64,000 bases of DNA from Deltaproteobacteria bacterium (GTDB lineage Bacteria > Desulfobacterota > Binatia > UBA9968). The position numbers and the translations under genes were made by a program. Under the pieces are notes generated by a model. The model did no database searches. It saw only the letters and a list, made by a program, of their open reading frames with translations, and was not told where the DNA came from. Below are positions 2,563 to 61,122 of the stretch, piece after piece (position 1 is the stretch's first letter; each line of letters begins with the position of its first letter). The stretch covers positions 290 through 64,289 of the forward strand of contig JACPSE010000124.1 of NCBI GenBank assembly GCA_016193465.1, written 5' to 3'.

Positions 2563-3759
2563 TTGTTGATCATGCCCATCGGGACGCCTTTTCACTCACG
2601 CACTTCGGCCTTATGCATCAGCCACAACTGGCGCGTCTGGTCCGGCTATCTCGTGGCCAGCTCCTATGCGGTCCTTCACGACCATGAATATCACGCTATC
2701 AGGAATTCCGCAGCCCTCATCGATGTTTCTCCGCTCTATAAATATGACATCAGCGGCAGTGATGCCCTCAAGTTTGTCAACCGCGTAATGACCAGAGACG
2801 CGGCAAAGTGCGCTCTCCAGCAGGCGATGTACACCTGCCTCTGCGACGAAGAGGGAAAGGTCATCCAGGACGGTACCTTGTTTCGATTGGGAGAGGACCG
2901 CTTTCGCTTTCATCTGGCCGACCCGAGCCTTCGCTGGTTTCAGATTAATGCCACGGGCATGGACGTAACTATTCAAGATGTCTCCGAGCAAGTGGCTGCC
3001 GTGGCGCTCCAGGGACCCACCTCGCGCGATATTCTAAGGCAACTCCTGGATGCCGGTATGGATTCGTTGAAGTTCTTTCGATTTACCTCCGCCAGTGTCG
3101 GAGGGATTCCGGCCGTAATCTCCCGCACCGGCTATACGGGCGACTTGGGATATGAGATTTGGATCCCCTCGATCCACGCGGAGCGCATCTGGGACATCCT
3201 GGTGGAAAAAGGCAAGCCCTACGGTATTACACCAGCAGGGATGCTCGCATTGGATATGGCCCGGCTCGAGGCGGGTTTCATTCTGATCGAAGTGGATTAC
3301 ACCAGCGCGGAAAAGGCGCTGATACCGTCGCAGAGATATTCGCCTTTCGAGATTGGCCTGGGCTGGACCGTTAGTCTCGACAAGGAAAGCTTCGTTGGTT
3401 GCAGCGCGTTGCTTGGAGAGAGGCAGCACGGTTCATCGAGGCAACTCATAGGCCTGGAGATCGACTGGGACGACTATGAGCGCCTCTATCGGGAGACCGG
3501 CCTGGCTCCTCAGCTTCCAACGGCCGCGTGGAGGGGTGGGGTGCCCGTGTATCGGGATAACAGGCAAGCAGGGCAAGCAACCACCGGTGGTTGGTCACCG
3601 GCGATAAAGAAATATATTGCTCTGGCCACTGTTCAAAGCAAGTTCTCTCAGCCCGGAGCGGAGCTCTTTATGGAAGTGACTGTGGAGCACGTAAGGAAAA
3701 AAGTTAGGGCCGCCGTGGTCAAGCTACCATTTTTTGATCCTCCGAGAAAGCGTGCCTAA
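2563..3759 (+). CDS. Aminomethyltransferase (GcvT/DmdA) family folate-binding protein
   Basis: GcvT-like N-terminus (RTS..H..W..W.GY, EY.A.R..A.L.D.S...K..I.G.DA) and length; divergent from the FAD oxidoreductase. Confidence 0.7.
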   Translation: MLIMPIGTPFHSRTSALCISHNWRVWSGYLVASSYAVLHDHEYHAIRNSAALIDVSPLYKYDISGSDALKFVNRVMTRDAAKCALQQAMYTCLCDEEGKVIQDGTLFRLGEDRFRFHLADPSLRWFQINATGMDVTIQDVSEQVAAVALQGPTSRDILRQLLDAGMDSLKFFRFTSASVGGIPAVISRTGYTGDLGYEIWIPSIHAERIWDILVEKGKPYGITPAGMLALDMARLEAGFILIEVDYTSAEKALIPSQRYSPFEIGLGWTVSLDKESFVGCSALLGERQHGSSRQLIGLEIDWDDYERLYRETGLAPQLPTAAWRGGVPVYRDNRQAGQATTGGWSPAIKKYIALATVQSKFSQPGAELFMEVTVEHVRKKVRAAVVKLPFFDPPRKRA

Positions 3760-3762
3760 CAG

Positions 3763-3838
3763 GCTATCAGCAGCCAGCGCTCAGCTTTCAGCCGCTAACT
3801 TTTTTGGACAGGGCTGATAGCTGATGGCTGAACGCTTC
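3763..3838. terminator. Inverted repeat between convergent genes (gctatcagc / gctgatagc arms) with T-run; possible bidirectional terminator
   Basis: caggctatcagcagccagc ... ttttttggacagggctgatagctgatggct; located between converging stop codons. Confidence 0.35.
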
Positions 3839-3842
3839 CCGG

Positions 3843-4700
3843 CTACAGGTTCAGCACCGCGTGGATGACTCCTTGACAAACCCTCGCCATAAATTCGAGA
3901 TCGAGCGTTTCCACAGTATCGGACGGTCCATGATAATGGGGGTTGCGAAAGAAGGCAGTGTCGGTTACCAGCAGGGCGGGGTAACCGAGGTCCCAGAAGG
4001 GCGAGTGGTCGCTCAAGCGAACCTGGGGAACGAGAAATCCGTTGCCCATGACGGTTAGGGTCTCTACCGAAAGCCCGCGGACTTGGCGTAGCAGGCGGGA
4101 AAACTGTCTGAGGAGCAAGCTAGAGCGCCAGTTTCCGATCACGCCGATGAAGTCGCCGCGATCCGGGTAAAACCACCGAAGTCCGACAGGATATTGCTGG
4201 CTTCCGGGTTTCGGATCGGTAAATCCCACCATCTCTAGGGATACCATGGCCCGGACCTTCACTCCCGCTGCCTTGAGCTTTTTGGCGAAGTGCGCGCTGC
4301 CGATCATATTCAGCTCTTCGAGATTGAAGGCGCAAAAAAGCACCTGGGAGTGGAGCCTCAAGCCGGATAGAATTCTTGCCACCTCTAGAAGAACTGCAAC
4401 CCCGCTGGCGTTATCGTCCGCTCCGGGAGAGCCTTCCACTGAATCGAAATGGGCGCCGAGGATAATCGGCGGCCCACTGCGGGCGGCGCCAAGCCGTCCG
4501 ATGACATTGCGGTAACTCCTTCCCCAGTAGGTAAAGGTGTCGCTTTCCACGCTTAGCCCGTAGGACTCAAACTCCCTCTCGATGTAATTCTCCACCGCTG
4601 CCAAATGACGTGAGTTGCTGAAAGGGCTTCTCTCGCCGACAATGCGCTGCAGCTTCTTTTTTAGTTCTGCCGTGCTGGTTGTAGGTGAGGAGGCGATCAT
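3843..4700 (-). CDS. M28 family zinc aminopeptidase
   Basis: ILGAHFDSV...[14 protein letters not shown] metal-binding motifs of M28 peptidases. Confidence 0.75.
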
Positions 4701-5583: not shown

Positions 5584-7071
5584 ATGCCTCAGGTAGCGAT
5601 TAGACCTGGAACTGAGAAATGGCCCAGAACTCTTCTCAGGTGGACTATAACGGCCACTGCCATCTTCCTTGGCGGTTGTAGTCTCCATAGACCCATTCTG
5701 CAGGAACATGTCCCGGGACTGGGTCGCTTTGAATTCCGGGAACCGGCTGAAGGGATGGGGGGTGTCGTGGTCGGTGCCCCGCACGGGAGAACGGATCGCT
5801 ATTCGGACAGACTTGCTCGTGCGATCAGTGACCGGACAGGAGCCGGCCTGGCGATCGCCTACGGGTTCCGCTCTAAGCGGATTTCTGTGAATCAGCCTAT
5901 CGTCAGGTCGGGCGCATACTCGACATCCTGGAACTTTCCCCAACGCGGAAGCGTCTTCAGAGAGTACAAAAAGGTCCTGCGCAGAGCGGCCAAAGGGGAG
6001 ATCGACCTGTATATAGGGGTTCACAGATGGGGGACAGGGGAAGCTGATCGGATTGAAGTCGCCACCAGTGGCCTGACGTTTGAGGAGGCAATGATCCTTA
6101 AAGAGACCTACGCTCGAATCCGCGATGAGCTGGTTCCAAAAGGGCAGGCTCCCCGGCTCGAAATGGCCATCGAACCGATCGAGAGGATCTCTTGGCGAGT
6201 TTCGGGAGTGAAGCACCACGGAGTGCTCCTGATTGCGGAAAAGGGCCTGAATATCCGACTGCCCCAATTTTTCTCCTCCGACTCCGGGGAGAGACTCTAC
6301 GCGGAAATCTTATCTCGCTGGGTTGGCCAGGTGATAGTCGTCCTGCGGGAAAATCCGGGGAGACTCCCACAGATTCAGGTCCAGGTCACGGACTTGGGCA
6401 GGTTCGAATTGGTTGAGTCCAGAAAACGGTTTTCAGGGGTTGTCATCGGTTCTCCTCATGGCAGCTACGACGAATTCACGGCGGAGGTGGTGAAGCGTCT
6501 CAGTTATCGGACAGGATTTGCCGCGGTTATCGCCAAGGGCTTTACGCCCACCGAGACGGGGGGAACGCGCATCAACGTCAACCGGCCCACAGAGAAGTTG
6601 CCCTATTCGGAGGGGCGCGAGATCCACAGCCGGCGTGCGACGGAGACCTACCACGCTTTTAAAGATCTTGTGTTCGCCGCCTCGAGCGGAGACTTGGAGC
6701 TCTATATTGATATCCATCAATACAACACGGATAGCAAAATCCAGGTGGCCACAGTAGGTATCTCTCAGAGGGAGGCCAAGATCATCAAAAAGATCTACGG
6801 TGAAATCCGGGACCAAACCCTGAAGAGGCAATCTCATATCCCGGTGGTTGAGCTTCTCATAGAGCCGCTTGATGAGGTGGAGATTGGTGCCTGGGCAGCC
6901 AAGATCGAGGGCATCTTGGGCCAAGCCAAGAAGAGCTTGCACTTTGAGCTGCCGGGCGAAAAAGCCCTTACAACAAGCGAGACCCGGGAGGCCTACACCC
7001 GTATCTTGGCTGCCCTTCTGCGAGAGTCGGCGCCTATACTGGCATCGCGGGCGAAGACGCTAATACGATAG
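5584..7071 (+). CDS. Lipoprotein with two tandem ~200-aa homologous domains (possibly DUF867/poly-gamma-glutamate hydrolase-like)
   Basis: Lipobox LGGC after signal peptide; internal duplication (GVVVGAPHGRTDRYSD.. / GVVIGSPHGSYDEFT.. and LYIGVHRWGTGEADRIEVAT / LYIDIHQYNTDSKIQVAT); family assignment is tentative. Confidence 0.55.
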   Translation: MPQVAIRPGTEKWPRTLLRWTITATAIFLGGCSLHRPILQEHVPGLGRFEFREPAEGMGGVVVGAPHGRTDRYSDRLARAISDRTGAGLAIAYGFRSKRISVNQPIVRSGAYSTSWNFPQRGSVFREYKKVLRRAAKGEIDLYIGVHRWGTGEADRIEVATSGLTFEEAMILKETYARIRDELVPKGQAPRLEMAIEPIERISWRVSGVKHHGVLLIAEKGLNIRLPQFFSSDSGERLYAEILSRWVGQVIVVLRENPGRLPQIQVQVTDLGRFELVESRKRFSGVVIGSPHGSYDEFTAEVVKRLSYRTGFAAVIAKGFTPTETGGTRINVNRPTEKLPYSEGREIHSRRATETYHAFKDLVFAASSGDLELYIDIHQYNTDSKIQVATVGISQREAKIIKKIYGEIRDQTLKRQSHIPVVELLIEPLDEVEIGAWAAKIEGILGQAKKSLHFELPGEKALTTSETREAYTRILAALLRESAPILASRAKTLIR

Positions 7072-51490: not shown

Positions 51491-51532
51491 TAAGAATACT
51501 TGGCAGATCGCCCCAAAGAGGTCGCGGAATCA

Positions 51533-51889
51533 ATGAAATCCGTTGAGGACCTAGACGTCTTCAAGCTTGCCCATGAACTCACTCTAAGAATCTACAAAGT
51601 AACGGCTGATTTTCCGCGAGAAGAGAGCTTTGGCATTGTCTCGCAGATGAGACGAGCGGTAAGCTCTGTAGGAGCGAATTTAGTTGAGGGATCCATGAGG
51701 CTTAATAGCCGGGAGTTCAGGCAGTTTGTAGGTATTGCTAGGGGCTCAGCGGCTGAAGTCGGCTACCAACTACTTTTGGCCAGGGATTTGGGCTATATCT
51801 CAAATCAGGTCTACGAAGAAACTCGGTCAGACTACGACAGAGTAGGTCAGATGCTTACTTGCCTGGGTCAATCACTGGATCGTGAGTAG
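51533..51889 (+). CDS. Four-helix-bundle protein (23S rRNA intervening-sequence protein family, TIGR02436-like)
   Basis: DLDVFKLAHELTLRIYKVTADFPREE..GIVSQMRRAVSSVGANLVEG...ARGSAAEV.YQLLLARDLGYI. Confidence 0.7.
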   Translation: MKSVEDLDVFKLAHELTLRIYKVTADFPREESFGIVSQMRRAVSSVGANLVEGSMRLNSREFRQFVGIARGSAAEVGYQLLLARDLGYISNQVYEETRSDYDRVGQMLTCLGQSLDRE

Positions 51890-53172: not shown

Positions 53173-54618
53173 TTAGTTTCCTAGTTTTTTCCTCAGTATC
53201 TCATTGACCATTTGGGGGTTGGCCTTGCCCCGGGTGGCCTTCATGACTTGCCCCACCAGAAAGCCGAAAACCTTCTCTTTTCCGGCGCGATAGTCTGATA
53301 CCTGCTCCGGCTGGCCGGCAAGCACCTCGTCGATGGCCCTTTCGATGTTGCCCGCGTCCGTGACCTGCTCTAAGCCTTTCTCGCGGACTATCCTGTCCGG
53401 GGACTCTCGTCGTTCCAGCATCTCTAGAAATAGAGCTTTGGCCATCTTGCCGCTGATCTTTCCTTCATCGATCATGCGGACCATCTCGGCTAAATGATCG
53501 GGGGCAATCGGCCAGGCGGTGATGCGGAGGTTCTCATCCAGTTTCTTCTCCCTGATGATCCGAAAGAGATCGCCCATGACCCAATTGCTGATCGCCTTGG
53601 GATTGGGGTGGCTCTTCACTGCCGCTTCGAAGTAGTCCGCCACATCCCTGCGACTTGTGAGAAGCTCGGCATCGTAGAGGGGGAGAGCGTATTCGGACAT
53701 AAAGCGTTCCTTTTGCTGCTCTGGCAGTTCCGGAAGGCCGGCCCTGATCGCTTCGATCCATTTTTCCTCGATGATAAGGGGGAGCAGATCTGGCTCCGGG
53801 AAATAGCGGTAGTCGTGGGCAAACTCCTTGGAGCGCATGGAGCGGGTGATTTCACGCTCCGCGTCCCAAAGCCTGGTTTCCTGGATAAGTTTGCCTCCTT
53901 CCGAGAGGGTCTCGATCTGCCTCCGGATCTCATATTCCAGGGCCTTTTCTACCGCCTTGAAGGAGTTCATGTTCTTGATCTCAACCTTGGTGCCGAACTC
54001 GCTGGAGCCGCGCGGACGCACGGAAATATTGGCATCGCAGCGAAAGGAGCCTTCCTCCATGTTGCCATCGCAGACCTCTAGATATTGCAAAATGGCTCTC
54101 AGATTCTTGAGGTAGCGGCCGGCCTCTTCGGCGCTGCGGATATCCGGCTCGCTGACGATCTCCATGAGCGGGACGCCGGCTCGATTCAGATCTACCAGAC
54201 TGTAGTCCCCACGGACGTCGTGGATGTTTTTTCCCGCGTCTTCCTCCATGTGGATGCGGGTCAGGCGGATTTTCTTTTTGCCCCCATTGGACTCGATCTC
54301 GATGTGACCGTTGCGGCATAAGGGCAGCTCGTACTGGCTGATCTGATAGCCCTTGGGAAGGTCGGGGTAGAAGTAGTTTTTTCTGGCCCAACGGCTGAAG
54401 CGCGCGATCTCGCAGTGAGTGGCCAGCCCTGTGCGGACGGCGAATTCAACGACTTTCTTGTTGAGCACCGGCAAGACTCCAGGGAATCCCATGCATACCG
54501 GACAGCTATTTTGGTTGGGATGTGCCCCAAAACGTGTCGAGCAGCCGCAGAAAATCTTGGACTCGGTTAAAAGCTGGGCGTGGACCTCAAGGCCGATGAC
54601 AGGCTCGTAGTTGCTCAT
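53173..54618 (-). CDS. gatB: Asp/Glu-tRNA amidotransferase subunit B
   Basis: [16 protein letters not shown]..., C-terminal YqeY-like domain. Confidence 0.95.
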
Positions 54619-55016
54619 TTCTTACCGCCTATCTTTTCCCGAATCTCAGTAACGATGGCTTTCGCGTCTTTCAGTGCATTTTGAGCATCCGCCTTCGTAG
54701 GCTCCCCCGCGGGCAGCAGGCCTGGAAGGGCATCGGCATATCGTGTCGGAATGTAGAAACGATCCAGGTTCCGGCACAGTGTCCGCCACTTCCGCAGCTC
54801 AGTGCGGATTCCAGCGTCGTAGAGAAGCATCTGCTCCAGGGAATGGCTCTTGGGATGAGTTCCTAGTCGGGCATCCAAGAGTCCCTTTAGTGCTTTTTCA
54901 ACGGCCTGCTGGGCGTGAAAGCAGGTTTGCCGGAAAATGCTCCGAGACAAGGCGTATTCAGCCATCTCGATGTCTTCATTCGCAAGTTCCAACCAGCGCT
55001 CAGCCTCAGGCTTCAT
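54615..55016 (-). CDS. HEPN domain protein (putative toxin/partner of adjacent nucleotidyltransferase)
   Basis: HEPN helices with R..(4-6)..H-type motif ([12 protein letters not shown]) ; 133 aa; 4-nt overlap with upstream NTase gene. Confidence 0.65.
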
Positions 55017-56203
55017 ACCGGAAAAAGCACTTGCCCTTTCTTGAGAATCTCACCCCTCACGAAGAAGTGCCCCTCCTGCTCCGCCCGATTAAACTCCTCA
55101 GGGGTATAGACAATGGCATTCAGGCCAACCCGTGGTTGGAGCAGGTCCATGACTTCTCGGATGCGATCCAAGAAGCTCGCCGGAGTCGATTTCACAATAG
55201 CCAGATCAATATCGCTCCACTGGTGAACCGCATCTGGGGAATGGTCGGCAAGGGAGCCGAAGAGGATAATACGCTCAGGACGATACTGTTCGACCAACTT
55301 GCTCTTGATTCGTTCCAGCTCTCGTAGGAGCGTTTCTCTCCTGTCAAAGAGCTTCCGGAAGATTTTTTTGAGCTCTGGCCTTAGGGGGTGAGCCGCCCGC
55401 GGGTTTGTAAACAGACGACTATGGACTCTCACATCGTGAAAGTGTGGGACTAGCTTCATCCATACGAGAGCGCTTATGCGGGATGTTCCTCCCCTATCGT
55501 CAGGGAGACAAAAGAGCCCATCGGGGACTCGCTCGTTTCTAATTTCACGTCTTAGAGCATTAGCCTTGTAAACCTCATCCCCCCAGAGGACCGACTCCAT
55601 ATCTTCTAAGCGGCCTCCGCGTGCTCCGACAACCAGGACCGTCGGCTTCCCGGACGGGAGTTGGTCAAGTTCTTTCGTAATTCGTTGACGCAACTCCTGA
55701 GAGGCCGGAATTCCTCGGATCTCTGAATTATCTCTAGCGGTGGTCGGATCAAAGGTTGCCTCGACGGTGACGCGACCATAGACACGCGTATCATCAGCAA
55801 CGGTATCCGACCCGTAAACAGGCGGGAACCTATCCTCCCTGGTCGTGACCTCGAGGAATACTTCTTGCCCCTTTAACTGGCACTTCAAGTCACATTTGGC
55901 GGCGCCAACTTTCGGCGCCAGTTCCAACTTGTCGGCAACGGGAGCTAGCATGGCTGCAACTCTTATTTCGTACATCGCCGCGAGGAACTGGCCGGCGTTT
56001 TGCAACAACGTTCGATAGGCGGTTGCGATTTTAACGCATGGCAAGTGACGTGTCAGAAGCTCAAGGTCTTGTTCCACCTGCCACAGCGGAAGGATGCCGA
56101 GTTGCTCAAACTCGCGCTTCCGCGCACTAAGGTTGCGACTCCCAAGCAGTTCGGCTAGACGAGGGAACTTATTCGAGATTAGAGAAGTCAACGTATTATC
56201 CAT
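55013..56203 (-). CDS. Minimal nucleotidyltransferase (MNT) domain protein with about 290-aa N-terminal domain of unknown function
   Basis: C-terminal [10 protein letters not shown]...DIDLAIV (GS...D.D) pol-beta-type NTase motif; start MDNTL overlaps gatA stop by 8 nt; upstream ORF extension overlapping gatA rejected. Confidence 0.6.
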
Positions 56204-57662
56204 GGTCGAGCAGCGGTTTCTTTTTGTGCCATTCCGTGGCCTGCTCATAGGCGAAGGCCAGCCTGAGGATCGTGGCCTCGTCGAAATGCCTGCCGATGAT
56301 CTGCATGCCGATGGGTAGCCCCTCAGCGTCAAAACCGCACGGCACCGAGATTGCGGGGAGCCCCGCGAGGTTCGCCGAGATGGTAAAGATATCGGAGAGA
56401 TACATCTGCAACGGATCCTGGGTCTTTTCTCCGATCTTAAATGCGGTGGTGGGCGCCGTGGGGGTAATGATGGCGTCACATTTTCGGAACGCCGCTTCGA
56501 AATCCTTCTTGACGAGAGTCCTCACCCGCTGGGCCTTCAGGTAATAGGCGTCGTAGTAGCCGGCTGAGAGGGCATAGGTCCCGAGCATGATCCGCCGCTT
56601 CACTTCCGCTCCGAATCCTTGCTCCCTGCTCCTCGTGTAGGTCTCAGTGAGATCCCTGGCGAGGGCGCGATAGCCGTACTTCATGCCGTCGTAACGCGCC
56701 AGGTTGGAGCTGGCCTCGGCCGTTGCGATGATATAATAGACCGCGACCGCGTACTCCGTGTGCGGCAGAGAGACCTTCTCGATTCTGATGCCGTTTTTTT
56801 CCAGCACGCGAATCGCCTCTTTAACGGCCTGTTCCACTTCCGGCTGCATTCCGGGGATAAAATACTCTTTGGGGATCCCGACTCTTAGCCCTTTCGCATC
56901 GCCGTTCAGAAAGCTGGCGTAAGCGGGGACAGGCGCGTTGACCGAAGTGGAGTCCGACGGATCATAGCCGGCGACCGCCTCCAGCATCAGGGCGCAGTCA
57001 GTGACATTTTTTGTCATCGGGCCGACCTGATCCAGGGAAGAGGCGAAGGCGATGATGCCGTAGCGGCTGACTCGACCATAAGTAGGTTTTAGCCCCACGA
57101 TCCCGCAGCAGGCCGCAGGCTGGCGGATGGAGCCTCCCGTATCGGTCCCCAGCGCAGCGATGCATTGATCCGCAGCCACTGCCGCTGCTGAGCCGCCGGA
57201 GGAGCCGCCGGGGACCCGATCCAGTTTCCAGGGGTTATGGGTTATGGCGATAGCGGAGTTTTCCGTCGAGGAGCCCATGGCAAACTCGTCCATGTTTGTT
57301 TTCCCCACGGCGACGGCTCCGGCTTCTTTCAATTTTCTTACCGCAGTGCCGTCGTAAGGAGGGACAAAGTTTCCCAATATCTTGGAGGCGCAGGTCGTCA
57401 ACACCCCTTGGGTGAGAAAGATATCCTTCAGGGCAAGTGGAATGCCCAGCAACGGGGAAGATTCTCCGCCTTTTCCGAGTCTTTCGTCGGCCTGCTTCGC
57501 CTCTGCAATGGCCTTGTCCCGGCAAAGCGTGATATAGGAGTGTAATTTATCCTCGGTGGCCGAGATCCTGCGGAACACCGACTCGGTGACCTCTACCGAC
57601 GAGACCTCGCGCTTTTTGAGTTTCCCGTGCAGCTCGTGAAGGGTTAAGGTATGGAGGCTCAT
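56196..57662 (-). CDS. gatA: Glutamyl-tRNA(Gln) amidotransferase subunit A
   Basis: Amidase signature [13 protein letters not shown], Ser-cisSer-Lys triad region. Confidence 0.95.
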
Positions 57663-57946
57663 TCAATGATCTTTGGAACTTTAAAGAAATCCCTTTCCCG
57701 TGCCGGCGCGTTAGCAAGCAGGGTATCGGGCGAGGGTTGGTTGACAACGCGATCTTCGCGGAAGGCGTTGACGATGTCCGCCACGTGGGCGAGTGGCTCC
57801 ACATTTGCCGTATCCAGTTGGTTCAGCTTCTCGATGTATTGAAGGATCCTGTCCAGTTGGCCGGTTAGAATTTCCTCCTCTTGCGGAGAGAACTGCAGGC
57901 GGGCCAACAGGGCGACTCGCTGGACTTCGTCACGGGTAATTTTCAT
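57659..57946 (-). CDS. gatC: Asp/Glu-tRNA amidotransferase subunit C
   Basis: [25 protein letters not shown], 95 aa, overlaps gatA. Confidence 0.9.
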
Positions 57947-58118: not shown

Positions 58119-58961
58119 ATGAAGGAAAGTTGGAATAGCGCCGAACTGGAGGAAGAAGCCTATTCTCGCGGCTTTAAGTGTGTCGCCGGGCTGGACGAAG
58201 TAGGCAGGGGACCGTGGGCGGGTCCGGTGGTGGCCGCCGCTGTGGTTCTCCCTCCGGGTGTGAGCCATCCAGAGATCAAAGACTCGAAACTCCTTACCGC
58301 TAAGAAACGGGAGGAACTAACGATTTGGATTAGAGAGCGGGCCGTGGCGTGGGGATTAGGGGTTGTTGAGTCCGAAGAGATCGACCGGATGAATATCCTG
58401 AAGGCGAGCCTTCTGGCGATGTCCCTCGCTTTTAAGCGCCTCAATCCGCTCCCGGATTACCTGCTGATTGACGGGCCGCATAAAATTCCGTTGGAGTTCC
58501 TAAGGGCAGAAGAAGCCAGGCAACAGGCAGAAGACAGGCGAGAGGCAACAGGCAACAGGCTAGAGCCGGGAGGCGACAGGAGGGAGGAAGATGATTTAGC
58601 TCTCGTCTCAAGCCTCACGCCTTCCGCCTCATGCCTTTCCCCTCACGCCTCGCGCCTCACGCCTCATGCCTTGCCCTTCCAGAAGGCGATCAAGAAGGGC
58701 GACCGGTTGTCTATTTCTATTGGCGCGGCCTCTATCGTGGCCAAGGTGGCGCGGGATGAGATAATGAAAAAATATGACAGCCTGTATCCTGAATACGGAT
58801 TTAGGCAGCATAAGGGCTACGGATCCCCTGCGCACCTGGCAGCGCTCCGTCGCTATGGCCCGGCGCCGATTCACCGCAGGAGCTTCAGGCCGGTGCGGGA
58901 ATGTCTCAGCTTACCAGCCTCCCAGCTTCCTAGCCTCCTAGCTTGGAGGCGAGAAGGCTAG
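58119..58961 (+). CDS. rnhB: Ribonuclease HII carrying an in-frame about 56-aa low-complexity insertion derived from a heptamer hairpin element
   Basis: GLDEVGRGPWAGPVV, LLIDG, KGD..S.SIGAASIVAKV, GYGS motifs; insert between LIDG and KGD (58514..58676); RBS aaaggag before ATG 58119. Confidence 0.85.
   Translation: MKESWNSAELEEEAYSRGFKCVAGLDEVGRGPWAGPVVAAAVVLPPGVSHPEIKDSKLLTAKKREELTIWIRERAVAWGLGVVESEEIDRMNILKASLLAMSLAFKRLNPLPDYLLIDGPHKIPLEFLRAEEARQQAEDRREATGNRLEPGGDRREEDDLALVSSLTPSASCLSPHASRLTPHALPFQKAIKKGDRLSISIGAASIVAKVARDEIMKKYDSLYPEYGFRQHKGYGSPAHLAALRRYGPAPIHRRSFRPVRECLSLPASQLPSLLAWRREG
58514..58676. repeat. Heptamer-arm hairpin element inserted in-frame within rnhB
   Basis: aggcaacaggcagaagacaggcgagaggcaacaggcaacaggc...ggaggaagatgatttagctctcg...cctcacgccttccgcctcatgcctttcccctcacgcctcgcgcctcacgcctcatgcc; centre matches 47778 element. 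Confidence 0.7.
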
Positions 58962-59340: not shown

Positions 59341-59425
59341 AGAAGGCGTGAGGCGTGAGGCATGAGGCGCGAGGCGTGAGTAAAAACTTCTTCTGGTTGC
59401 CTGTTGCCTTTCGCCTCAAGCCTAA
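59341..59425. repeat. Heptamer-arm hairpin element between yraN and serS
   Basis: aggcgtgaggcgtgaggcatgaggcgcgaggcgtgag-taaaaacttcttctg-gttgcctgttgcctttcgcctcaagcct. Confidence 0.6.
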
Positions 59426-59436
59426 AGTGTTTTCTC

Positions 59437-60708
59437 ATGCTGGATATTAAGCTTCTTCGAGACAATTTGGATCTGGTTAAAGAGCGGATCGGCGCCAGGG
59501 GGACGAAGATCGACTGGGAAGAGTTCGGCGCCGTGGACCGGGAGCGCCGGGAGACGCTGGCGAAGTGGGAGAGACTGAAGGAGAAAAAAAATCAGCTTTC
59601 CGGCGAGATCGGCAGGCTAAAAAAATCGGGTCAGGATGCCGCTTCGCTGATGCGGGATGTGGAGCAGCTTTCCCAGGCGATCCGCGACGGTGAGGGACCT
59701 TTAGCGGAGATCGAAGGGCGATTCCAGAAATGGATGCTTTGGATTCCGAACCTACCGCACCCCAGCGTGCCGTTGGGATCGGGCCCCGAAGACAACAAGG
59801 AGGTGAGACAATGGGGCGAGCTTCCCCGTTTCGATTTTTCTCCGAAAAACCATTGGGAGATAGGGGAAGAGCTGGGAATTCTGGATTTTACCAGGGCGGC
59901 AAAAATTGCGGCCTCTCGGTTCGCGATTTACTATAGACAGGGGGCGTTGCTGGAGCGGGCGCTGATCAATTTCATGCTCGATCTGCACACGCGCGAGCGT
60001 GGTTACCGGGAGACGGTGCCGCCGTTTCTGGTGAATCGAGAGACCATGACGGGCACGGGGCAGCTACCAAAATTTGAAGAAGAGCTTTTCCGCACCGCGG
60101 AACCGGAGCTTTTCCTCGTGCCAACGGCTGAGGTGCCGTTGACGAACATCCACCGGGATGAGGTTTTGAGCCGGGAAGATATCCCTATCTGCTACGTCGC
60201 CTATACTCCTTGCTTTCGCCGCGAGGCGGGCTCCTACGGACAGGACGTGCGCGGGCTGATACGCCTGCACCAGTTCAACAAGGTGGAGCTGGTGAAATTG
60301 ACCGGGCCGCAGAATTCTTACGAGGAGCTGGAGAAAATGGTGCGGGATGCCGAGGAGGTCCTTCAAAGGCTTAGGCTTCCTTATCGCGTCGTGGAGCTTT
60401 GCGCTGGCGATTTGGGCTTTTCCTCGGCGAAAACCTACGATTTGGAGGTGTGGCTGCCAGGGCAGGGGGCTTACCGGGAGATCAGCTCCTGCTCGAACTG
60501 TGAGGATTTTCAGGCGCGCCGGGCTCAAATCCGCTATCGCCCGGAAAAAAAAGGAAAACCCGTTTTTGTCCACACGCTCAACGGCTCCGGCCTGGCTGTG
60601 GGAAGGACAGTGGTTGCGGTCTTGGAGAATTACCAGCAGAAGGATGGGACCGTGATTGTGCCGGAGGCGCTACGTCCGTATATGGGAGGTCTGGAGCGGA
60701 TCAGCTAA
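59437..60708 (+). CDS. serS: Seryl-tRNA synthetase
   Basis: N-terminal coiled coil, class II motifs ([23 protein letters not shown]). Confidence 0.9.
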
Positions 60709-60852
60709 AAAAACAGTTTTGAGTGGTGAGTTTTTAGTTCTTAGTTGACAGAAGTTTCCTTTCAACTCAAAACTAATAACCTAAAATTAAAAACTTAAAT
60801 GTTGAGCTGGAGCCTATTTACTATTGACTATTTACTGTTTACTGTAATTGCA

Positions 60853-60941
60853 GGAGGGGTGGCCGAGCGGTTTAAGGCACCGGTCTTGAAAACCGGCGTC
60901 CACTGCGTGGACCGCGAGTTCGAATCTCGCCCCCTCCGCCA
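60853..60941 (+). tRNA. tRNA-Ser (anticodon TGA)
   Basis: GGAGGGGTGGCCGAGCGGTTTAAGGCACCGGTCTTGAAAACCGG + long variable arm + GAGTTCGAATCTCGCCCCCTCCGCCA; near-identical architecture to E. coli tRNA-Ser(UGA). Confidence 0.9.
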
Positions 60942-60955
60942 CTAGTTTGGATAAA

Positions 60956-61015
60956 ACGTGTCCCGTGTTCGTGATTCGTGTTCGTACGAGCACGAGAAAC
61001 GAGCACGATCACGGC
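60956..61015. repeat. CGTG/CACGA-rich inverted repeat between the two tRNA-Ser genes
   Basis: cgtgttcgtgattcgtgttcgtacgagcacgagaaacgagcacgatcacgg; same family as flanks of four-helix-bundle gene. Confidence 0.5.
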
Positions 61016-61029
61016 TTTTACTTCACCAC

Positions 61030-61122
61030 GGAGAGATGGCCGAGCGGTCGAAGGCGCACGCCTGCTAAGCGTGTGTACCCCTTAAAAGGGTACCGAGGGT
61101 TCGAATCCCTCTCTCTCCGCCA
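61030..61122 (+). tRNA. tRNA-Ser (anticodon GCT)
   Basis: GGAGAGATGGCCGAGCGGTCGAAGGCGCACGCCTGCTAAGCGTGTG + long variable arm + GGGTTCGAATCCCTCTCTCTCCGCCA. Confidence 0.9.

Follow-up and report, generated by a model that had tools for sequence, protein, structure and literature searches.

Why should an essential operon carry a nucleotidyltransferase gene and a HEPN gene between two subunits of the enzyme that it encodes? The question is raised by a 64,000-nt stretch of Deltaproteobacteria bacterium DNA (contig JACPSE010000124.1, assembly GCA_016193465.1; hereafter the window), in which a gene that we call X, encoding a minimal nucleotidyltransferase (MNT) behind a long N-terminal extension, and a HEPN gene lie inside the gatCAB operon of the tRNA-dependent amidotransferase. 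An original prediction, made from the sequence alone, had taken the pair for a HEPN/nucleotidyltransferase module of the toxin-antitoxin or abortive-infection kind. We find that X-HEPN is an accessory cassette that is present in some near relatives and absent from others, comes in divergent allelic types and has been exchanged into the same slot. We put at roughly 60% the probability that it is a mobile class II MNT-HEPN conflict module lodged in the essential gatCAB operon.

The gatA-gatB slot and its cargo

The operon and the cassette are laid out as follows (window coordinates; aa, amino acids; E, Pfam E value).

57946..57659, minus strand: gatC, first gene of the host operon (Pfam GatC, E 6.9e-24)
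57662..56196, minus strand: gatA, amidase subunit (Pfam Amidase, E 8.7e-170)
56203..55013, minus strand: gene X, first cassette gene, ATG start, 396 aa and a stop codon
55994..56203, minus strand: X aa 1-70, predicted N-terminal helical subdomain, with conserved Q42, E44, D46 and R52
55394..55987, minus strand: X aa 73-270, predicted restriction-endonuclease-fold core, with E79 (codon 55969-55967), D105 (55891-55889), E118 (55852-55850) and T120 (55846-55844)
55016..55339, minus strand: X aa 289-396, linker helix and MNT, with G316-S317 (codons 55258-55253), D331 (55213-55211) and D333 (55207-55205)
55016..54615, minus strand: class II HEPN, second cassette gene, 133 aa (Pfam PF05168, E 1.4e-26); residues conserved in the family alignment are Q36-Q37..E40-K41, H58 and R92-Y93 (54743-54738)
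54618..53173, minus strand: gatB, downstream host gene (Pfam GatB_N, E 1.4e-129, and GatB_Yqey)

Open reading frame (ORF) and Pfam analysis bore out the claimed gene order (gatC, gatA, X, HEPN, gatB) and overlaps, which are exact on the minus strand: 4 nt for gatC/gatA, 8 nt for gatA/X (ATGGATAA), and 4 nt (ATGA) for both X/HEPN and HEPN/gatB, the gatB ATG sharing bases with the HEPN stop codon. The ATG of X falls within the last gatA codons (LDHG-stop), and in an alignment of junctions this short tail, supplied by the cassette, is found only in cassette-bearing gatA alleles. The placement inside gatCAB is as unusual as first described, the cassette overlapping both the gatA and the gatB reading frames, and the stop/start overlaps imply that translation of gatB runs through the cassette. 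We found no further copies of X, MNT or HEPN in the window; the operon gave no Rfam match, and promoter and terminator consensus sites were no more common in it than in shuffled sequences.

Comparison of the gatA-gatB region in related genomes, proposed along with the original prediction, revealed empty slots, cassette-bearing slots and slots with other cargo. All comparison sequences, numbered L001 onward, are metagenome contigs or metagenome-assembled genomes (MAGs). Thirteen of the 16 distinct fused loci are at the gatA-gatB junction (the window, L001, L003, L005, L007, L008, L009, L010, L012, L013, L014, L155, and L160); their outer flanks vary, with RNase HII and serS in some and UvrD and FtsEX in others, and their cassettes fall into three deeply diverged subtypes (X1, X2, and a third type). 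The remaining three lie elsewhere: between a copper ATPase gene and an amidohydrolase gene in L011, between a metalloenzyme gene and an aspartokinase gene in L158, and in a neighborhood with PIN toxin-antitoxin genes in L159. The L011 contig also carries a second, separate PF05168 HEPN gene (2570-3022) about 3 kb upstream of its X-HEPN.

A metagenome scan with GatB returned 80 relatives, and in most of them gatB directly follows gatA. The most informative is L071, which is cassette-free, with gatA and gatB 85% identical to those of the window and 93% nucleotide identity over 3.1 kb to the cassette-bearing L009. Its gatA-gatB spacer is 130 nt long and AT-rich, homology stops at the last gatA codons, and its gatA ends in KKKPPL-stop, where those of the window, L001 and L009 end in LDHG-stop. 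Other operons hold different cargo in the slot: a 23S-rRNA-intervening-sequence/four-helix-bundle gene in L072 (1504-1887), a 332-aa ORF of no known type in L087, and a reverse-strand gene in L073. In L160 a 118-aa ORF of no known type and a 146-aa gamma-glutamyl-cyclotransferase-like (GGACT/AIG2) ORF precede X-HEPN (3191-3997), which indicates that the slot can build up an islet. The contents of the junction therefore vary, and X-HEPN cannot be counted as a constant part of the operon, since a near relative lacks it and other cargo occupies its place; that it might be a universal part of gatCAB in this lineage was rejected on the strength of L071 and the many other cassette-free operons.

Several smaller observations concern the slot and its cargo. 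A gene of the same family as the L072 cargo (bAvd-like) lies at 51500-51889 on the plus strand of the window, in the secA-argJ interval, and the occurrence of one copy there and of a family member in the L072 gat slot suggests that this four-helix-bundle gene is also an itinerant insertion. Inverted heptamer arrays with GTTATTG or CAGTAAT units fill the empty gatA-gatB spacers of L071 (3268-3385) and L074 (~3870-3995). Insertions between gatC and gatA in more distant bacteria (L099, 2152-2502; L108, 2109-2471) were considered as a mobile cassette and rejected, as they are panD, the metabolic gene for aspartate 1-decarboxylase.

The cassette and its flanks have different histories. Between the window and L001, gatA and gatB are each 79% identical at the protein level, with synonymous divergence (dS) of 1.96 and 2.04, close to saturation and thus imprecise, and a nonsynonymous-to-synonymous ratio (dN/dS) of 0.07 for both, whereas X and HEPN are 83% and 90% identical, with dS of only 0.27 and 0.17 and dN/dS of 0.34 and 0.27. 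The same dS contrast appears in the window-L009 and L001-L009 pairs. Differences at four-fold degenerate third positions between the window and L001 are ~0.57 in gatA and gatB, 0.17 in X and 0.10 in HEPN, and the shift falls within the first or last 40 codons; nucleotide identity rises from ~72% to 83-97% at 56240-56200 and drops back at 54620-54570. At third codon positions the GC content (GC3) of the cassette is 0.58-0.59, against 0.72 for gatA and gatB.

Protein similarities are likewise incongruent. The L010 cassette resembles that of the window clade (64-66% for the N-terminal domain of X and 72-74% for HEPN) more than those of its own gatA/gatB clade-mates (44-57% for the N-terminal domain), and the L010 gatA and gatB have the reverse affinity, falling in a Rokubacteria-type clade. 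In L014, L007 and L008, gatA and gatB are 77-79% identical to those of the window and the cassette is of another type, the N-terminal domain of X being only 30-33% identical. When proteins were clustered at 90% identity, the window HEPN had 18 members from many samples, and gatA and gatB each clustered with no protein but that of the window. The low dS of the cassette relative to its flanks, the sharp borders, the GC3 difference, and the protein-level incongruence are together read most simply as signs that a discrete X-HEPN unit has repeatedly been replaced laterally at a single slot.

This pattern resembles that of defense and accessory-gene hotspots, in which a fixed slot with conserved flanks holds alternative cargo, with presence/absence polymorphism and lateral allelic replacement. 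It differs in that the slot lies between two subunits of one enzyme in an essential operon, and in that the cargo is held within translational coupling, with no integrase or attachment (att) site. The cassette borders lie no more than ~10-15 nt from the ORF ends. An integron cassette with attC and a site-specific recombinase was rejected as an explanation, because the borders are ORF overlaps devoid of noncoding DNA and we saw no integrase in the examined fused loci; by inspection, the hairpin at the empty L071 site does not fit RYYYAAC/GTTRRRY cores.

Cassette subtypes also differ in their expression signals. In X2 and off-site cassettes a TATAAT- or TATACT-like box lies a mere 7-12 nt ahead of the X ATG (L007, ~2320-2350; L008, ~540-571; L011, ~5970-6000; L159, ~3960-4000), a spacing that may point to transcripts with no leader or a very short one. 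This box is absent from the X1 copies in the gat slot, where X overlaps the gatA stop codon instead; the X1 cassette brings neither a promoter nor intergenic DNA with it, and the window copy depends on operon read-through.

The MNT-HEPN pair and the N-terminal domain of X

Among the predicted toxin-antitoxin modules of archaea and thermophilic bacteria, class II MNT-HEPN pairs rank with the most abundant. X is a single gene. A search of 5.8 billion proteins detected ~75 full-length homologues of 387-418 aa and 35-89% identity, from MAGs labeled Methylomirabilia, Rokuibacteriota, Deltaproteobacteria, or Acidobacteria; these homologues and the dN/dS of 0.34 establish that X is a real gene and not a chance ORF, and the dN/dS values of X and HEPN alike point to purifying selection. 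The possibility, raised at the outset, that the ORF is really two genes, the second starting at the internal methionine of VWMKLVPH, was rejected: the homologues are full length, and this residue, M249, lies inside a β-strand of the N-terminal domain in an AlphaFold2 model of X built with the homologue alignment (predicted local distance difference test score, pLDDT, 90; predicted template modeling score, pTM, 0.88). The domain border was placed near residue 288 because stand-alone relatives of the N-terminal domain end there.

At the C terminus the predicted MNT is confirmed. Pfam gave only sub-threshold Polbeta/NTP_transf_2 matches to aa 296-393 and no match to aa 1-290, and NCBIfam and PADLOC recognized the nucleotidyltransferase part alone, yet the motif residues of GS-x13-DxD (G316, S317, S330, D331, and D333) are invariant in an alignment of 63 homologues. 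The same alignment shows conserved residues in the N-terminal part, among many others D46, E79, D105, E118, R144, and G208.

The HEPN partner scores 93 bits against PF05168 (cut-off 22), and no DUF86 (PF01934) match was found in it by Pfam; the nucleotidyltransferase part of X reaches 18.9 bits with the NCBIfam MntA model, whose cut-off is 60. The nearest relatives of the HEPN in the Protein Data Bank (PDB) are TT1696 (1ufb), TM0613 (1o3u), and 1wol, and in every fused locus with downstream DNA available the HEPN gene follows X. The family alignment contains the motifs CFHxQQxxEK, K(S/T)H(S/A)L, and LDxFYIPTRYxDALPG. At the position of the His of the canonical Rx4H motif (R+5) the window protein has Leu, and all 21 aligned members have Leu, Val, Ala or Pro; Y93 in TRY(A/P)DALPG is nearly invariant, being His in one of the 21 (L025).

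According to Yao et al. (2020; PMC7641770), class II MNTs retain GSX10DXD, and class II HEPNs lack RX4HXY and keep a conserved Tyr; the modules were described as widespread and predicted to act in toxin-antitoxin or abortive-infection systems, with no biochemical study known in 2020. We found no biochemical study of class II pairs in the later literature, and no publication linking HEPN/nucleotidyltransferase genes to gatB. X-HEPN is a class II HEPN/MNT pair by definition: the MNT, of the PF01909/Pol-beta type with GSX(n)DXD, is encoded immediately upstream of a PF05168 HEPN, as in the systems of Makarova et al. (2009) and Yao et al. (2020) and in the group of TT1696 and TM0613, and the HEPN has no RX4HXY and retains the Tyr (TRY), QQxxEK, and HSL. 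It departs from other class II pairs in that the MNT of X is fused to a 288-aa domain with a predicted nuclease fold, in that the GS-DxD spacer is 13 residues and of variable length, and in that X-HEPN is translationally coupled inside gatCAB with no promoter of its own.

X-HEPN does not carry the defining motif of type VII HepT/MntA systems as known from Shewanella (SO_3166/3165), Aphanizomenon (7ae2), and Legionella (8xeh): its HEPN is of PF05168 and not DUF86 and lacks Rx4HxY, the motif that holds the RNase residues and the AMPylated Tyr. Thus the module first predicted is present as a pair, and the HepT/MntA toxin-antitoxin mechanism is not simply assumable for it. In the classification of Anantharaman et al. 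this family is HEPN-T (PF05168), and they note that an alternative conserved His could aid activity (PMC3710099). In a Legionella class I HEPN the catalytic site is reported to be a Q44/E47 metal site and not Rx4H (PMC11586414), to which Q37/E40 of the HEPN here could be analogous, as a lead only.

The N-terminal extension had been described as large, novel, and without a recognizable motif. It is indeed unannotated: X aa 1-288 had no significant match in Pfam, NCBIfam, PADLOC, PHROGs, or PDB sequences, nor did its stand-alone relatives, and 23 members of the domain searched against Pfam with E up to 5 gave no match, DUF1626 included. It is not without motifs, however. Structure prediction, as had been suggested, gave a restriction-endonuclease-like fold, the AlphaFold2 model (pLDDT 90) having the α-β-β-β-α-β core that defines the PD-(D/E)XK superfamily. 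The best fold match was CdiA-CT of Burkholderia pseudomallei 1026b (Bp1026b; PD-(D/E)XK), followed by BsmI, SfsA, NucC, CdiA-CT of Escherichia coli EC869, YaeQ, NucS, Bax1, and HindIII. Foldseek returned weak matches (best E 8e-4), nearly all of restriction-endonuclease fold, among them SfsA, VC1899, Cdn1, Cas4, Can2, HincII, and N.BspD6I.

Conserved acidic residues occupy the active-site places of the fold: E79 in the helix at 73-86, D105 at the strand 106-110, and E118-V-T120 in the strand 113-123. Position 120, where the canonical residue is Lys, is Thr, Ala, or Ser in the window clade; Lys is found in X2 and the third fused subtype, in most stand-alone members and in ~60% of the wider family. 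Among 134 sequences with all motif positions aligned (alignment members and the best profile hits), 74 have the signature ED(D/E)xK and 44 have EDExT. A profile of the domain matched 283 clusters among 1.84 billion representative proteins, many of them stand-alone proteins of ~300 aa. Because of the restriction-endonuclease-fold matches, the acids at active-site positions and the lack of a match to annotated families, the domain is predicted to be a new, unannotated and divergent PD-(D/E)XK family, a putative nuclease present in the window clade in a Thr form.

Two known groups bear comparison with X. Archaeal proteins combining MNT with a restriction-endonuclease-fold domain (DUF1626) are found in operons with PaREP1-type HEPN (Anantharaman et al., 2013; PMC3710099, Table 1); X is like them in uniting the two domain types with a HEPN gene partner and differs in being bacterial, in its HEPN subfamily and in its gat context, the DUF1626 comparison being by sequence search only. 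The CdiA-CT toxins (the B. pseudomallei 1026b tRNase and the E. coli EC869 DNase) share the PD-(D/E)XK fold with the N-terminal domain at 8-12% identity, and X has no contact-dependent inhibition context or immunity gene; the likeness is at fold level and does not indicate a substrate.

Components of X also exist apart. Stand-alone MNTs (~110 aa) paired with HEPN occur in Planctomycetia, Chloroflexota, cyanobacteria, Elusimicrobia, and other groups, with 50-56% (MNT) and 40-49% (HEPN) identity to the window proteins, and none of these pairs was beside gat genes. A stand-alone gene for the N-terminal domain adjoins an integrase fragment in L151, and another (L152, 5001-8560; also in L153 and L154) adjoins a caspase-like Peptidase_C14 gene and a separate class II MNT/HEPN pair within an integrative element that also holds Rep, excisionase-type helix-turn-helix, and integrase genes. 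This element may be a defense islet containing the component types of X in unfused form. With stand-alone N-terminal domains in mobile contexts and ordinary MNT/HEPN pairs elsewhere, X seems to have arisen when a nuclease-fold gene from a mobile element was joined to the MNT gene of a standard class II pair; the ordinary MNT and HEPN pair is the ancestral form.

Conflict module, amidotransferase accessory, or enzyme

If X-HEPN is a conflict module, its action may be pictured by analogy with class I HepT/MntA. The MNT, whose GS...DxD motif is intact, would nucleotidylylate HEPN, probably at Y93 of the TRY motif, or bind it as an inhibitory complex; this control would be lifted on phage attack, when the operon ceases to be expressed, or when ATP runs low; and HEPN, the nuclease-fold domain, or both would then be free to halt growth by attacking DNA or RNA, possibly tRNA. 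Residence in an essential coupled operon would guarantee expression and make imprecise deletion or polar inactivation costly, and in this way the cassette would persist. The suggestion that the pair is an addiction module stabilizing the operon reverses the logic, because gatCAB is essential regardless and the cassette is variable in presence and laterally exchanged: it is the cassette that exploits the slot. The other original suggestion, a sensor-fused defense variant, is possible.

Several results weigh against a conflict module. The N-terminal domain had no matches in IMG/VR viral contigs, PLSDB plasmids, or PHROGs, and none in PADLOC. No repeats (terminal repeats included), att-like sites, or recombinase genes were found at the cassette. 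The replacement of the catalytic Lys by Thr in the window clade means that the N-terminal domain could be noncatalytic, and so could a HEPN lacking the Rx4H RNase motif. In the literature we found no class II MNT-HEPN pair reported to be toxic, to nucleotidylylate, or to act as a nuclease. Finally, the bias of three diverged subtypes toward the gat slot could reflect a functional link.

Such a link is the core of one rival explanation, that X-HEPN is a domesticated accessory of the tRNA-dependent amidotransferase acting on GatCAB or its tRNA substrates, for example by nucleotidylylating a Gat subunit in the manner of GlnE/GlnD (nucleotidyltransferase plus HEPN-like domain) or by helping to process, repair, or check the quality of tRNA(Gln) and tRNA(Asn). 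The 13 of 16 fused loci at gatA-gatB, with three subtypes and differing outer flanks, speak for it, as do the tight translational coupling, the purifying selection, and the fact that the best fold match is a PD-(D/E)XK tRNase, CdiA-CT of Bp1026b, whose tRNase activity was reportedly described by Morse and colleagues in 2012. Domestication of MNT-HEPN into regulatory nucleotidyltransferases has been described (Anantharaman et al.; PMC3710099). We nevertheless consider this explanation unlikely: a relative with 93% nucleotide identity lacks the cassette and most of the 80 gatCAB operons have gatA and gatB side by side, the module also occurs off gat operons, it is exchanged laterally with a foreign GC3 and a dS far below that of its flanks, unrelated cargo uses the same slot, and relatives of the N-terminal domain are found in integrative elements. 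A related idea, to which we give long odds, is that the cassette is wired to the gat pathway as a sensor of translation or tRNA state, which the coupling would allow, as the cassette needs ribosomes finishing gatA and gatB needs ribosomes finishing HEPN. Were a functional link real it would be much more interesting: tRNA(Gln) or tRNA(Asn) would be cut or marked by the nuclease-fold domain or by HEPN, or GatCAB would be nucleotidylylated by the nucleotidyltransferase, and a shut-off of translation brought on by phage or stress would thereby be tied to indirect aminoacylation.

It is also rather improbable, in our judgment, that the pair is a heteromeric nucleotidyltransferase (KNTase-like, with a nontoxic HEPN subunit) and not a toxin system, its nuclease fold being a catalytically altered module that binds nucleic acid or a ligand and its reaction modifying a small molecule or a nucleic-acid end in resistance or repair. 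The conserved acidic triad, and the Lys kept by about three-fifths of the family, suggest that true nuclease chemistry exists within the family; conflict systems typically show the mobile-element contexts, presence/absence variation, and allelic replacement seen here; and there are no candidate substrate genes nearby. We regard as very improbable that the lateral exchange is an artifact of chimeric metagenome assemblies or of constraint on synonymous sites, and that X-HEPN is old and vertically inherited. The metagenomic origin of all comparison sequences and the imprecision of a dS of ~2 in the gat flanks would permit this, but independent assemblies and protein-level incongruence agree with each other: the contrast recurs in three independent pairs, one locus is represented by two independent assemblies, L001 and L002 (JGI and Logan), the borders match gene ends on both sides, GC3 differs, the incongruence of L010 and L014 does not depend on dS, and an empty site exists in a near-identical genome.

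What is new in this locus is the unannotated PD-(D/E)XK fusion partner, the coupled placement within an operon, and the evidence for slot-specific lateral exchange. A nuclease-fold family of ~283 clusters, with a catalytic-type signature and mobile contexts, is a candidate new effector or sensor domain, and its fusion to MNT offers a handle on the targets of class II modules. The locus is also an unusually clean case of an accessory cassette laterally exchanged into an essential coupled operon with no recognizable recombination machinery, and it bears on how selfish or defense genes are expressed and persist and on how operons tolerate foreign insertions.

At 59404-61122 the window contains serS followed by two tRNA-Ser genes with anticodons TGA and GCT. 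Tandem heptamer arrays, of the same style as those in the cassette-free spacers, occur at 58536-58683 and 59342-59423 and are made of GCCTCAC/GCCTCAT units and five copies of the inverse AGGCGTG. The first array is in frame within an unusually long rnhB ORF, which encodes 300 aa against 241 aa in L001, and the inverse array is located between yraN and serS.

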